A DNA stretch of 5,540 nucleotides from a virus (taxonomy: Duplodnaviria; Heunggongvirae; Uroviricota; Caudoviricetes): the IMG/VR virus record IMGVR_UViG_2671180724_000012. One strand, written 5' to 3'. The notes beneath the pieces were generated by a model. The model was not told the origin of the DNA. It was given only the letters and a program-made list of their open reading frames with translations, and searched no databases. Below, piece after piece: positions 1 through 5,540 of the stretch; the first letter of the stretch is position 1; each line of letters opens with the position of its first letter. The translations under genes were made by a program, and so were the position numbers.

Positions 1-1443
1 TTCAGTGGTCTGCCGCTCGGGGAATACACCCTGACAGTCAGGGCAATTAACAGTTATGGCCAGCAGGGCGAACCGGCCACCACCACGTTCAGGATTAATG
101 CACCTGCGGTACCCGCCACGATTGAGCTGACACCGGGCTATTTTCAGATAACAGCGGTCCCGCGTCTTGCGGTGTATGACCCGACGGTACAGTTTGAATT
201 CTGGTTTTCGGAGGCAAAAATCGCAGACACCGCACAGGTGGAAACCGCTGCCCGTTATCTGGGGACCGGCAGCCAGTGGAGCGTCTCCGGCAGCCGGATT
301 AAGCCGGGGACGGATTTCTGGTTTTACGTGCGCAGCGTCAACCTGGTGGGGAAATCTGCTTTTGTGGAAGCCAGTGGCCGGGCCAGCAATGATGCAGAAG
401 GGTATCTGGGGCTGTTTCGGGAAAAAATAGGAAAACTGCATCTGGCTCAGGGGCTGTGGGAGCTGATAGACAACAGCCAGCTTGCGGATGAGATGGCGGA
501 GATGAAGACCACCATCACCGAAACCCGCAATGAAATCACACAGACGGTCAGTAAAACGCTGGAAGACCAGAGCGCCACCATTCAGCAGATACAGCGCGTG
601 CAGAAGGACACAAATGATGACCTGGCTGCGCTGTACATGCTGAAGGTTCAAAAAACGAAAGACGGCATTCCCTATGTGGCCGGGATTGGTGCAGGGATTG
701 AGGATACTGATGGCCAGCCACTGAGCAACATACTGCTGCTGGCTGACCGTATCGCGATGATAAATCCGGAGAACGGCAACAGCACGCCGTTATTTGTGGC
801 GCAGGGGAATCAGCTGTTCATGAACGACGTGTTCCTGAAGCGGCTGTTTGCGGTGAGTATCACCTCGTCCGGCAATCCCCCGACGTTTTCCCTGACGCCG
901 GAGGGCAGGCTGACCGCAAGAAATGCTGATATCAGCGGTAACGTGAATGCGAATTCCGGGACGCTCAACAACGTCACGATTAACGAGAACTGTCGGGTTC
1001 TGGGAAAACTGTCCGCGAACCAGATTGAAGGCGATCTCGTTAAAACAGTGGGCAAAGCTTTCCCCCGGGATTCCCGTGCACCGGAGCGGTGGCCATCAGG
1101 GACCATTACCGTCAGGGTTTATGACGATCAGCCGTTTGACCGGCAAATTGTTATTCCGGCGGTGGCATTCAGCGGCGCTAAACATGAGAGAGAGCATACT
1201 GATATTTACTCCTCATGCCGTCTGATAGTGCGGAAAAACGGTGCTGAAATTTATAACCGTACCGCGCTGGATAATACGCTGATTTACAGTGGCGTTATTG
1301 ATATGCCTGCCGGTCACGGTCACATGACGCTGGAGTTTTCGGTGTCAGCATGGCTGGTAAATAACTGGTATCCCACAGCAAGTATCAGCGATCTGCTGGT
1401 TGTGGTGATGAAAAAATCCACAGCAGGTATCAGTATCAGCTGA
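1..1443 (+). CDS. J: Tail-tip / host-specificity protein J, C-terminal portion (5' end lies upstream of the window)
   Basis: Frame 1 is open from position 1 to TGA at 1441..1443; the ORF track only begins at an internal GTG at 172. Translation ([25 protein letters not shown]...[13 protein letters not shown]...[18 protein letters not shown]...[19 protein letters not shown]...) matches, from memory, the C-terminal part of lambda J including its receptor-binding end. No search was run. Confidence 0.85.
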
Positions 1444-1461
1444 ATTTTATAACCCAGAACG

Positions 1462-1488
1462 GGCGTCAGAAATGACGCCTTTTTTATT
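1462..1488 (+). terminator. Rho-independent terminator-like hairpin after J (stem GGCGTCA / TGACGCC, loop GAAA, then T6-A-TT)
   Basis: Perfect 7-bp inverted repeat at 1462..1468 and 1473..1479 with a 4-nt loop, followed directly by TTTTTTATT. It lies 19 nt after the J stop. Confidence 0.7.
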
Positions 1489-1509: not shown

Positions 1510-2109
1510 ATGCGTAAACTTTATGCCGCCATTTTGTCCGCAGCCATTTGTCTGACCGTATCCGGTGCGCCTGCATGGGCGTCTGAGCAGCAGGCCACGC
1601 TGAGCGCGGGGTATCTTCATGCCCGGACGAACGCTCCCGGTAGCGATAATCTTAACGGGATTAACGTGAAATACCGTTATGAATTCACGGACACGCTGGG
1701 GCTGGTGACGTCATTCAGCTATGCAGGAGACAGGAATCGCCAGATTACCCGTTACAGCGATACCCGCTGGCATGAAGATTCCGTGCGTAACCGCTGGTTC
1801 AGCGTAATGGCGGGGCCGTCTGTGCGCGTGAATGAATGGTTCAGCGCGTATGCGATGGCGGGAGTGGCTTACAGCCGTGTGTCGACTTTCTCCGGGGATT
1901 ATCTTCGCGTAACTGACAACAAGGGGAAAACGCACGATGTGCTGACCGGAAGTGATGACGGTCGCCACAGCAACACGTCTCTGGCGTGGGGAGCTGGCGT
2001 GCAGTTTAACCCGACCGAATCCGTGGCCATTGATGTCGCTTATGAAGGCTCCGGCAGTGGTGACTGGCGCACTGACGGATTCATCGTGGGTGTTGGTTAT
2101 AAATTCTGA
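1510..2109 (+). CDS. lom: Lom (Ail/Lom/OmpX/PagC-family outer-membrane beta-barrel protein), copy 1, 199 aa
   Basis: ATG at 1510 is preceded by GAGAGG about 6 nt upstream. N-terminus [24 protein letters not shown] is a classic signal peptide with an A-x-A cleavage site. The C-terminus ...[23 protein letters not shown] ends in an aromatic residue and matches the lambda Lom C-terminus as I recall it. Confidence 0.9.
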
Positions 2110-2135: not shown

Positions 2136-2162
2136 AGCCCGCCGGTTCAGGCGGGCTTTTTT
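2136..2162 (+). terminator. Rho-independent terminator-like hairpin after lom copy 1 (stem AGCCCGCC / GGCGGGCT, loop GGTTCA, then T-run)
   Basis: Perfect 8-bp GC-rich inverted repeat at 2136..2143 and 2150..2157, followed by TTTTTTGT. It lies between the lom stop (2109) and the stf start. Confidence 0.75.
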
Positions 2163-2173
2163 GTGGGGTGAAT

Positions 2174-2773
2174 ATGGCAGTAAAAATTTCAGGTGTACTG
2201 AAAGACGGCACAGGAAAACCGGTACAGAACTGCACAATCCAGCTGAAAGCAAAACGTAACAGTACCACGGTGGTGGTGAACACGCTGGCATCTGAAAATC
2301 CGGATGAAGCCGGGCGTTACAGTATGGACGTTGAGTACGGTCAGTACAGCGTTATTCTGTTGGTGGAAGGATTCCCGCCGTCACATGCCGGGACCATCAC
2401 AGTGTATGAAGATTCCCGACCCGGTACGCTGAATGATTTTCTCGGTGCCATGACGGAGGATGATGCCCGTCCGGAGGCACTGCGCCGTTTTGAACTGATG
2501 GTGGAAGAGGTGGCGCGTCACGCAGAGGAGGCGAAGAAGAATGCCGGAGAGGCGGAGACGTCAGCGAGGAATGCCGGCATATCAGCCAGTCAGGCAGAAG
2601 AGGGCGCTGCAAATGCTGACACTTCAGCAGGGGAGGCATCGGAGTCAGCCCGGCAGGCGGCAGAAAGTGCAGCCGCTGCAAAGCAGTCAGAGGAAGCGTC
2701 CTCGTCCTCGGCCTCTGCGGCCGCTCAAAAAGCCAGTGAGTCATCACAAAGTGCAGCAAAAAGAGCATACTGA
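2174..2773 (+). pseudogene. stf: Side tail fibre stf, interrupted copy: 195 N-terminal Stf codons, then 4 junction-derived codons and a stop
   Basis: ATG at 2174 (the ORF track starts at an upstream GTG at 2168) with GGGGTG upstream. [37 protein letters not shown]... matches the lambda Stf N-terminus from memory. Identity with the downstream stf copy (4433..) ends at 2758; the frame then reads K-R-A-Y and stops at TGA 2771..2773 inside J-derived sequence. Confidence 0.75.
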
Positions 2774-3014
2774 TATTTACTCCTCATGCCGTCTGATAGT
2801 GCGGAAAAACGGTGCTGAAATTTATAACCGTACCGCGCTGGATAATACGCTGATTTACAGTGGCGTTATTGATATGCCTGCCGGTCACGGTCACATGACA
2901 CTGGAGTTTTCGGTGTCAGCATGGCTGGTAAATAACTGGTATCCCACAGCAAGTATCAGCGATTTGCTGGTTGTGGTGATGAAGAAAGCCACTACAGGCA
3001 TCACGATTAGCTGA
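2762..3014 (+). pseudogene. Orphan 3' fragment of J (last 84 codons), divergent copy, with no start codon of its own
   Basis: 2762..3014 aligns colinearly with 1191..1443 ([75 protein letters not shown]...). Substitutions are concentrated in the last 8 codons (STAGISIS versus ATTGITIS). It is in a different frame from the stf fragment upstream; the ORF 2541..3014 is an alternate-frame read of stf that runs into this remnant. Confidence 0.7.
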
Positions 3015-3033
3015 ATTTTATAACCCAGATACG

Positions 3034-3060
3034 GGCACCAGAAATGGTGCCTTTTTTATT
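3034..3060 (+). terminator. Rho-independent terminator-like hairpin after the J fragment (stem GGCACCA / TGGTGCC, loop GAAA, then T-run)
   Basis: Paralog of the 1462..1488 hairpin. Two stem positions differ, and both changes are compensated on the opposite arm (G:C to A:T, and T:A to C:G). Confidence 0.7.
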
Positions 3061-3081
3061 GCAGAAAAGCGAGAGGTAATT

Positions 3082-3681
3082 ATGCGTAAAGTTTGTGCAG
3101 CCATTTTGTCCGCAGCCATCTGTCTGGCCGTATCCGGTGCGCCTGCATGGGCGTCTGAGCAGCAGGCCACACTGAGCGCAGGGTATCTTCATGCCCGTAC
3201 GAACGCTCCCGGCAGCGATAATCTGAACGGGATTAACGTGAAATACCGTTATGAGTTTACGGACACGCTGGGGCTGATTACGTCATTCAGTTATGCCAAC
3301 GCTGAAGATGAGCAAAAAACGCATTACAGCGATACCCGCTGGCATGAAGATTCCGTGCGTAACCGCTGGTTCAGCGTGATGGCGGGGCCGTCTGTGCGCG
3401 TGAATGAATGGTTCAGCGCGTATGCGATGGCGGGTGTGGCTTACAGCCGTGTGTCGACTTTCTCCGGGGATTATCTGCAGGTGACCGACAATACGGGGAA
3501 AACGCACGATGTGCTGACCGGAAGTGATGACGGTCGCCACAGCAACACGTCTCTGGCGTGGGGGGCTGGCGTGCAGTTTAACCCGACAGAATCCGTGGCC
3601 GTTGATGTCGCTTATGAAGGCTCCGGCAGCGGTGACTGGCGTACCAACAGTTTCATCGTTGGTGTCGGTTATAAATTCTGA
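3082..3681 (+). CDS. lom: Lom (Ail/Lom/OmpX/PagC-family outer-membrane protein), copy 2, divergent paralog, 199 aa
   Basis: Same length and RBS as copy 1, with intact signal peptide and C-terminal beta-signal. It differs from copy 1 at about 17 residues: 8 of the 9 codons 73-81 (GDRNRQITR versus NAEDEQKTH), plus L4V, Y5C, T16A, V66I, R134Q, K138T, I175V, D189N, G190S. Confidence 0.9.
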
Positions 3682-3707
3682 TTAGCCAGGTAACACAGTG
3701 TTATGAC

Positions 3708-3734
3708 AGCCCGCCGGTTCAGGCGGGCTTTTTT
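3708..3734 (+). terminator. Rho-independent terminator-like hairpin after lom copy 2
   Basis: Same AGCCCGCC-GGTTCA-GGCGGGCT hairpin and T-run as 2136..2162. Confidence 0.75.
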
Positions 3735-3745
3735 GTGGGGTGAAT

Positions 3746-3967
3746 ATGGCAGTAAAGATTTCAGGTGTACTGAAAGACGGTGCAGGTAAACCGGTACAGA
3801 ACTGCACAATCCAGCTGAAAGCAAAACGTAACAGCACCACGGTGGTGGTGAACACGCTGGCCTCAGAAAATCCGGATGAAGCCGGGCGTTACAGTATGGA
3901 CGTTGAGTACGGTCAGTACAGCGTTATTCTGTTGGTGGAAGGATTCCCGCCGTCACATGCATGGTGA
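3746..3967 (+). pseudogene. stf: stf 5' fragment, divergent copy: 71 Stf codons plus 2 junction codons, then TGA
   Basis: ATG at 3746 (upstream GTG at 3740). [20 protein letters not shown]...GFPPSH follows Stf to 3960, where the sequence switches into mid-lom; the frame stops at TGA 3965..3967. About 8 nucleotide differences from 2174..2388. Confidence 0.7.
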
Positions 3968-4368
3968 CGTCATTCAGCTATGCAGGAGACAGGAATCGCC
4001 AGATTACCCGTTACAGCGATACCCGCTGGCATGAAGATTCCGTGCGTAACCGCTGGTTCAGCGTAATGGCGGGGCCGTCTGTGCGCGTGAATGAATGGTT
4101 CAGCGCGTATGCGATGGCGGGAGTGGCTTACAGCCGTGTGTCGACTTTCTCCGGGGATTATCTTCGCGTAACTGACAACAAGGGGAAAACGCACGATGTG
4201 CTGACCGGAAGTGATGACGGTCGCCACAGCAACACGTCTCTGGCGTGGGGAGCTGGCGTGCAGTTTAACCCGACCGAATCCGTGGCCATTGATGTCGCTT
4301 ATGAAGGCTCCGGCAGTGGTGACTGGCGCACTGACGGATTCATCGTGGGTGTTGGTTATAAATTCTGA
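3961..4368 (+). pseudogene. lom: lom 3' fragment (codons 65-199 of copy 1, with no signal peptide); the junction base creates an in-frame ATG
   Basis: 3962..4368 is identical to 1703..2109. Base 3961 is A where lom copy 1 has C at the matching position, so the lom Leu65 codon CTG becomes ATG. There is no Shine-Dalgarno sequence upstream, and the fragment lacks the signal peptide and the first beta-strands. Confidence 0.7.
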
Positions 4369-5017
4369 TTAGCCAGGTAACACAGTGTTATGACAGCCCG
4401 CCGGTTCAGGCGGGCTTTTTTGTGGGGTGAATATGGCAGTAAAAATTTCAGGTGTACTGAAAGACGGCACAGGAAAACCGGTACAGAACTGCACAATCCA
4501 GCTGAAAGCAAAACGTAACAGTACCACGGTGGTGGTGAACACGCTGGCATCTGAAAATCCGGATGAAGCCGGGCGTTACAGTATGGACGTTGAGTACGGT
4601 CAGTACAGCGTTATTCTGTTGGTGGAAGGATTCCCGCCGTCACATGCCGGGACCATCACAGTGTATGAAGATTCCCGACCCGGTACGCTGAATGATTTTC
4701 TCGGTGCCATGACGGAGGATGATGCCCGTCCGGAGGCACTGCGCCGTTTTGAACTGATGGTGGAAGAGGTGGCGCGTCACGCAGAGGAGGCGAAGAAGAA
4801 TGCCGGAGAGGCGGAGACGTCAGCGAGGAATGCCGGCATATCAGCCAGTCAGGCAGAAGAGGGCGCTGCAAATGCTGACACTTCAGCAGGGGAGGCATCG
4901 GAGTCAGCCCGGCAGGCGGCAGAAAGTGCAGCCGCTGCAAAGCAGTCAGAGGAAGCGTCCTCGTCCTCGGCCTCTGCGGCCGCTCAAAAAGCCAGTGAGT
5001 CATCACAAAGTGCAGCA
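3962..5017 (+). repeat. Segmental repeat, unit C (exact 1,056-bp copy of 1703..2758: lom 3' part, terminator, stf 5' part)
   Basis: Line-by-line comparison with 1703..2758 showed no mismatches. Beyond 5017 the sequence continues as genuine stf, whereas the first copy breaks off at 2759. Confidence 0.85.
4395..4421 (+). terminator. Rho-independent terminator-like hairpin after the lom 3' fragment
   Basis: Identical to 2136..2162 (offset 2259). Confidence 0.75.
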
Positions 5018-5540
5018 GAAGCTGAATTGTCAAGAAAGACGGCAGAAAGTGCAGCCGGTAATGCAGCCAGGGATGCAACGACCGCAACAGAAAAAGCCCG
5101 GGAGTCAGCAGAAAGCGCACAGTCAGCGGAACAAAGCAGGATAGCGGCGGAAGAGGCCGTAAACCGAATCCCCACCGTGGTGGGACCTCCCGGGCCAAAG
5201 GGGGAACAGGGGCCCGCGGGTCCTCAGGGGCCGAAGGGTGATAAGGGAGAGCGCGGTGACACCGGCCCTGTCGGGGCAACCGGCGAACGGGGACCGGCAG
5301 GTGATGCTGGTCCGGCAGGCCCGCAGGGGCCGAAAGGTGACAGGGGAGAGCGGGGAGAGACCGGTCTGACGGGAAATGCAGGTCCACAGGGTCCAAAGGG
5401 AGATACCGGTGCGGCAGGCCCGGCAGGCCCACAGGGACCGAAAGGAGAAACAGGTGCGGCTGGCCAGGTGGGGGCAACCGGACCTCAGGGACCGAAGGGC
5501 GACCCGGGGGAGACACAAATCCGTTTTCGTCTGGGGCCGG
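4433..5540 (+). CDS. stf: Side tail fibre protein Stf, apparently intact 5' portion (3' end beyond the window); Ala/Glu/Ser-rich region followed by a collagen-like Gly-X-Y domain
   Basis: ATG at 4433 with the same RBS context as 2174. I translated the frame by hand to the window end and found no stop. The sequence is identical to 2174..2758 through 5017, then continues ...[82 protein letters not shown]... Confidence 0.85.
5183..5515 (+). repeat. Collagen-like triple-helix repeat coding region within stf (37 uninterrupted Gly-X-Y triplets with recurring GPQGPKGD units)
   Basis: Hand translation of the stf frame gives [111 protein letters not shown]. The nucleotide sequence is correspondingly periodic and GC-rich. 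Confidence 0.85.

Follow-up and report, generated by a model that had tools for sequence, protein, structure and literature searches.

The two intact lom genes of the 5,540-nucleotide window (the whole stretch of DNA that was analysed) are very probably two common lom alleles from two prophages of one strain, scaffolded side by side across N gaps and differing mainly in a ~31-nt, two-state loop-2 cassette. The cassette (gene nt 210–240, residues about 73–80) encodes the tip of loop 2, in a basic and outgroup-like state A in lom copy 1 and in an acidic state B in lom copy 2.

The lom locus and the assembly of the window

Pfam assigned J, Ail_Lom and phage_tail_N domains in the window, and the ORF listing gave its units in the order J 3′ part, lom, stf 5′ part, J end, lom, stf start, lom and stf (Table 1). 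Both Lom copies matched PF06316 (Ail_Lom) over profile positions 1–199 of 199, scoring 391.9 and 415.8 bits where the cut-off is 23. As read from the sequence, the N terminus is a signal peptide (MRK-hydrophobic-AWA/SE) and the C terminus has an aromatic end (...GVGYKF). The gene has the setting of a lambda-type lom moron, a single gene between J and stf with terminator-like hairpins on either side. The hairpin between J and lom was present as two alleles (GGGCGTC...GACGCCT before copy 1 and GGGCACC...GGTGCCT before copy 2) that differ by two adjacent compensatory changes and leave pairing intact. In other genomes the J–stf interval held a single lom that encoded the exact state-A protein of copy 1, and the exact state-B protein of copy 2 (644 blocks) was the sole lom of the J-lom-stf locus among the places listed. 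Loci carrying the exact state-A allele (L009–L016) had a short 437-aa stf and then type III effector-like genes (for a SopA-like pentapeptide protein, SseK/NleB and NleF), downstream of stf at locus positions of about 8400–12600, while prophages with the state-B allele had a long stf and a tail-fibre assembly gene instead of the effector-like genes. In the window itself, the stf product showed collagen-like Gly-X-Y repeats at 5165–5540, up to the end of the scaffold.

Table 1. Coordinates of the features in the window (copy 1 positions unless stated; location in the barrel as predicted).
Feature	Position	Strand	Basis or remark
J, tail tip protein, C-terminal part	1..1443	+	Pfam Ig_GpJ_C, Phage_Tail_Tip, Ig_J_second; PDB J matches
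Terminator-like hairpin between J and lom	1461..1480 (copy 2: 3033-3052)	+	Compensatory stem changes
lom copy 1, 199 aa, loop-2 state A	1510..2109	+	ORF; Pfam PF06316 E=6.9e-118
Core mini-cassette, allele A, gene nt 210-240	1719..1749	+	r2 = 1.0, two haplotypes
Loop-2 block (codons 73-81) in state A: GDRNRQITR, charge +2	1726..1752	+	Predicted tip of β3-β4 hairpin
Loop-3 differences R133Q, K138T	1906..1923 (copy 2: 3478-3495)	+	K138 at predicted loop-3 tip 136-140
D189N, G190S	2074..2079 (copy 2: 3646-3651)	+	Predicted extracellular top of β8, adjoining loop 4
Terminator-like hairpin after lom	2136..2157	+	Identical at 3708-3729 and 4395-4416
stf, side tail fibre gene, 5′ part	from 2174		phage_tail_N (Pfam)
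Scaffold gap, NNNN in CYAJ01000080.1, AAAA in window	2758..2761	.	Joint between the stf 5′ part of contig a and the J end of contig b
Contig b: last 84 J codons, lom allele B, 71 full stf codons	2762..3960	+	
lom copy 2, 199 aa, loop-2 state B	3082..3681	+	ORF; Pfam PF06316 E=3.4e-125
Core mini-cassette, allele B, gene nt 210-240	3291..3321	+	
Loop-2 block (codons 73-81) in state B: NAEDEQKTH, charge -2	3298..3324	+	
Second stf start	from 3746		Ends at 3960 inside codon 72
Scaffold gap, N in CYAJ01000080.1, A in window	3961..3961	.	Joint between the stf start of contig b and codon 66 of lom in contig c
Contig c: codons 66 onwards of lom allele A, then full stf	3962..5540	+	
Third lom, partial	3962..4371	+	Overlap of lom copy 1

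The window consists of three contigs joined across N gaps. The NCBI record CYAJ01000080.1 (GCA_001285225.1; 5,540 bp), to which a look-up of the 73-aa stf fragment led, corresponds to the entire window, with mismatches at five positions only (2758–2761 and 3961), all of which are N in the record and A in the window. These N stretches coincide exactly with both illegitimate junctions, and no sequence therefore supports the two lom genes as physical neighbours. Positions 1703–2757 and 3962–5016 were 100% identical, and contig c thus overlaps contig a; the middle unit showed 90–96% identity to the other two. When compared with other genomes, the stretches 1–2758 and 3962–5540 matched positions 4492–7249 and 6194–7772 of locus L009 at 100% each, giving one ordinary locus with a 1,056-bp overlap. 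Contig b (about 2760–3960) was found at 100% in locus L003 (5679–6879) and in four complete genomes, always at single-lom loci and in a different prophage type from that of the contig a and c locus, and this middle piece is broken mid-gene at its two ends. These matches left only the A residues at each joint unaccounted for. The best complete-genome matches folded the 5,540-base window onto an ordinary J-lom-stf locus of 3,281 bp.

The initial annotation had described two lom paralogs in an array and a lysogen that would display two loop variants from it. Genuine tandem paralogs within one prophage, produced by duplication and followed by divergence of loop 2, are very improbable, although the window as given does read through both junctions and keeps two lom ORFs intact. 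Besides the N gaps at both joints, the 100% overlap of the flanking pieces and the truncation of the middle piece, neither junction was present in 5,426 complete E. coli genomes (exact junction searches), and exact searches with A or N at the joint returned no match in genome, viral or metagenome collections, with the control that a pattern N does match a record N. The uninterrupted sequence across the junctions that would mark a tandem paralog array was not found. The in-frame stf::J ORF (2174–2773) and the ATG at 3961 that opens a truncated lom are both false and arise from N shown as A; neither the fusion ORF nor the 135-aa truncated lom ORF had a protein match in the look-ups, because both depend on the N-to-A bases. 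The array, and with it the lysogen said to carry it, therefore reduces to three contigs scaffolded via N. The gaps show that adjacency is unsupported, which is short of strict disproof.

Illegitimate J/lom/stf junctions were also observed in four other drafts (L163, L177, L178 and L179), and every one that was checked fell on a single N (positions 3144 and 5510 in L163, 432 in L177, 5552 in L178 and 5306 in L179), such that the look-alikes of the array are all N joints. We considered whether the fused or duplicated Lom proteins of the database, among them P0001–P0003 (internal duplications), P0065 and P0107 (J::lom fusions) and P0112, represent recurrent real rearrangements and rejected this for those that were checked, P0077, P0095 and P0115 (lom::J and stf::lom), which have single-N joints. 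Several "fusion" Lom proteins in public databases share this N-joint origin. Like the source of the window, these draft assemblies join J-lom-stf repeats by 1–4 N and thereby give lom genes a spurious tandem arrangement and create spurious fusion ORFs, but unlike the visible joints of the other drafts, those of the window were hidden by the rendering of N as A. This serves as a warning, as the substitution masked two joints and gave rise to a tandem array, a fusion ORF and a start codon that are all spurious.

The codon 73–81 block and its place in the barrel

The two Lom copies were identical at 183 of 199 residues, and their differences were concentrated at codons 73–81. Seven of the nine residues in this block differed, with Q78 and T80 common to both copies. 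The coordinates of the block, the flip from basic to acidic (+2 to −2) and the clustering of changes proposed initially were all borne out, but the count of eight changed residues out of nine was one too many. Permutation gave a probability of 2.5e-5 for at least 7 of 16 substitutions falling within nine codons, and of less than 5e-6 for 17 of 53 nucleotide differences falling inside 27 nt; the clustering is real and not due to chance. The remaining differences were L4V, Y5C and T16A in the signal peptide, the conservative changes V66I and I174V in strands, and four substitutions at 133, 138, 189 and 190 (Table 1). Among the isolated positions named in the initial annotation, 138 and 189–190 were correct, the change placed at 134 is R133Q, I174V had gone unlisted and V66I differs as well. 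Once the signal peptide is set aside, 13 differences remain, 11 of them in or adjoining loops 2, 3 and 4.

Alignment and structural models support a location of codons 73–81 at the tip of the β3-β4 hairpin, which is extracellular loop 2 of the eight-stranded Ail/OmpX/Lom barrel. Searches with phmmer against PDB sequences recovered lambda Lom (9wso_C, E = 5.6e-49) as well as OmpX and Ail (E about 1e-18), and aligned Lom 74–77 to OmpX 47–50 and Lom 85 to OmpX 51, with a 7-residue Lom insertion at 78–84 in between. In OmpX, loop 2 comprises residues 49–59 and loop 3 residues 91–103 (PMC9329534). The two AlphaFold models placed β3 at 63/65–73/74, a tight turn at 74–76 or 75–76 and a short strand at 77–82, followed by a kink at 83–86 and β4 from 87 onwards; short turns were predicted at 59–62, 109–110 and 170–171, the tip of loop 3 at 136–140 and loop 4 at 183–186. 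Strands β2–β8 were resolved and β1 was poorly predicted. Model confidence was moderate (mean pLDDT 62 and 65, about 50–54 in the loop), and removal of the signal peptide raised it little. Foldseek returned OmpX and Ail as top matches of the Lom model (prob 1.00). With phmmer, the AlphaFold turn and Foldseek agreeing on loop 2, the initial proposal that the block lies in an extracellular loop held up when checked by structure prediction and OmpX alignment.

Two cassette states, their linkage and their origin

Rather than a hypervariable site, the loop-2 block is a short mosaic cassette in surroundings that recombine. We compared 177 lom genes of the 199-aa type, taken from 176 loci and the window, which represented 129 distinct sequences. 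State A (G-D-K/R-N-R-Q-L/I-T-R/H) was present in 61 and state B (N/D-A-E/K-D-E-Q-K-T-H/R) in 68 of the 129; because both alleles were used to seed the 176-locus sample, its 47:53 ratio is no estimate of frequency. The same two states were recovered in 120 protein clusters from a homology search, several of which had thousands of members per state. Only one- or two-residue variants occurred within each state, and there were no intermediates in the core at 74–79 among the 129 genes and the 120 clusters, so the earlier description of the block as hypervariable does not apply to these collected homologs. Across the whole superfamily, loop 2 was the most variable part in sequence and length among the 54 distant family members examined. 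We found no prior description of the two-state dimorphism in the literature searched.

Linkage was complete over the 31 nucleotides at gene nt 210–240 (r2 = 1.0), with two haplotypes only among the 129 distinct genes. At codons 66 and 81 the r2 with the cassette was ~0.8 and all four haplotype combinations were present, and beyond them it was 0.0–0.3, in the remainder of lom as well as in the C-terminal part of J and the N-terminal part of stf. Four gametes were observed between the cassette and nearly all flanking sites. The cassette is thus a sharp-edged linkage island in all four haplotype combinations with its flanks, as is characteristic of a recombining mosaic, and the exchange of loop cassettes that had been suggested from the window alone fits this pattern. 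Neither the receptor-binding domain of J nor the N-terminus of stf co-varied with the loop state, the r2 values of 0.1–0.3 being background. N-terminal lom sequence types combined freely with both loop-2 states. Codons 1–50 (1510–1659 and 3082–3231), which cover the signal peptide and β1-loop 1, make up a further mosaic module, represented across the family by four or more sequence types. One of these has a lambda-like loop 1 that carries a 7-residue insertion, and every type was found with either loop-2 state.

Frequencies were assessed with 60-base state-specific queries in 5,426 complete E. coli genomes, counts that are unbiased by the query but come from genomes that are not phylogenetically independent. 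Of these genomes, 3,381 held state A, at 8,398 places in total, and 2,934 held state B, at 4,990 places, so that a minimum of 889 must have both states. Strain E2865 had eight A places and one B place, and in the IMG sample two of the five genomes with two lom loci held one of each state. Strains able to display both loop states are common, with the two in separate prophages and without any array.

Between the window alleles, 17 of 27 nucleotides in the block differed, with pS = 1.0 and pN = 0.54 over the nine codons. For the rest of lom, dS was 0.20 and dN 0.022 (dN/dS about 0.1), indicating purifying selection. Because synonymous sites in the block are saturated, dN/dS is uninformative on positive selection there, and the diversifying selection suggested initially finds no support in the dN > dS sense. 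The alleles were ~94% identical outside the cassette, and the two states were as unlike as unrelated sequence. Two outgroup lom genes were ~79% identical outside the block. Within the block, identity was 10/27 nt between A and B, 19/27 between A and P0093, and 12/27 between B and P0093; that state A is closer to P0093 than to state B indicates that it resembles the ancestral form. State B fits either an old or an imported sequence, and the two are indistinguishable because its donor was not found: the 54 distant family members included no donor and no B-like loop. The "GDDEQR" segment of P0228 was considered as a donor of state B, and its weak likeness was taken as chance.

Several processes could have generated such a block. 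Recent diversifying selection by point mutation, with dN well above dS in alleles descended from a shared recent ancestor, would be in line with seven changed residues and a charge inversion in an exposed loop of a protein under purifying selection elsewhere. We nevertheless consider it improbable, as every synonymous site of the block differs, with even the conserved Q78 and T80 having different third positions, as complete linkage extends to synonymous sites in the flanking codons 70 and 72, as the core lacks intermediates and as state A is closer to the 20% diverged outgroups than to state B. Programmed variation of lom through a diversity-generating retroelement or an invertible or shufflable cassette has hardly any likelihood. 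An imperfect 19-nt inverted repeat (1605–1623 / 1769–1787) does bracket the block in both alleles, but only two states occur, their differences involve all bases and are not adenine-specific, no reverse transcriptase, template repeat or invertase was present in the window or in the J-lom-stf neighbourhoods listed for related loci, and flipping the 145-nt segment would wreck the reading frame. In copy 2 the repeat lies at 3177–3195 / 3341–3359, and it is 84–89% complementary; it is probably a product of chance or a by-product of coding constraint.

A more plausible alternative, though one we still hold to be rather unlikely, is that the block is a functionally meaningless relic, left when gene conversion with a divergent Ail/Lom homologue replaced a short tract that by chance included the loop-2 tip, and then spread with successful prophages. 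The tract is short and sharp-edged like conversion patches, and loops in this family tolerate almost any sequence and length (54 distant members; PMC9329534; PMC3417512). Set against this are the high abundance of both states on many backgrounds, the clean inversion of charge at the most exposed point and the failure to find a donor among the 54 distant family members.

Possible role and known relatives

The block as such is ordinary allelic variation, a mosaic surface-loop polymorphism. Under the reading of two common prophage alleles, recombination has put both cassette states on many backgrounds of Lom, a prophage-encoded surface barrel expressed in lysogens. The tip of loop 2 may be a contact surface, which could be why both states are kept common. 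Its partners might include host polyanions or matrix, it might be the target of phages or antibodies, or it might set the specificity of the block that Lom is reported to impose on lambda infection; a switch between basic and acidic could accordingly change partners or alter visibility to phages or antibodies. We tentatively put forward, as a possibility that is less likely to be right than wrong, that the tip of loop 2 acts as a "charge switch" with two balanced states, which sets what Lom binds or excludes, and that polylysogens would gain from carrying one of each. If so, the state might determine, for example, the range of lambdoid phages that Lom stops at adsorption, or its ability to bind host polyanions. 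A charge-inverting loop-2 cassette in thousands of E. coli genomes, often with both states in a strain, offers a testable handle on the role of Lom, and a swap of the 31 nt should reveal if phage exclusion or host binding depends on loop 2.

Lambda Lom has a reported link to buccal-cell adhesion, and its over-expression blocks lambda-vir (PMC12366544). It shares with the 199-aa type the PF06316 family, the slot between J and stf, the eight-strand barrel and the C-terminal GYKF, whereas the 199-aa prophage type is without the 7-residue loop-1 insertion of lambda. Loop 2 of lambda Lom reads ASKKSSTVMTGEDTF, which is neither state A nor state B. A solved "Outer membrane protein lom" of 206 aa and the lambda type is available as chain C of PDB 9wso, an entry that includes other chains.

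The best structural matches were Yersinia Ail (3QRA/3QRC) and E. coli OmpX (1QJ8/1QJ9), in which the strands are conserved and the extracellular loops are not. Heparin-binding site I of Ail, the main one, is made of basic residues of loops 2 and 3 (PMC3417512), and this basic loop-2/3 site has the same position as the basic state-A block of Lom. Ail and OmpX are about 25–31% identical to Lom, in which loops 2 and 3 are longer. Variable regions of Neisseria Opa proteins and porins are short, highly diverged loop segments on a conserved barrel that are reshuffled by recombination. Lom resembles them in having diverged and recombined loop segments on a conserved scaffold, but differs in having two states instead of many.
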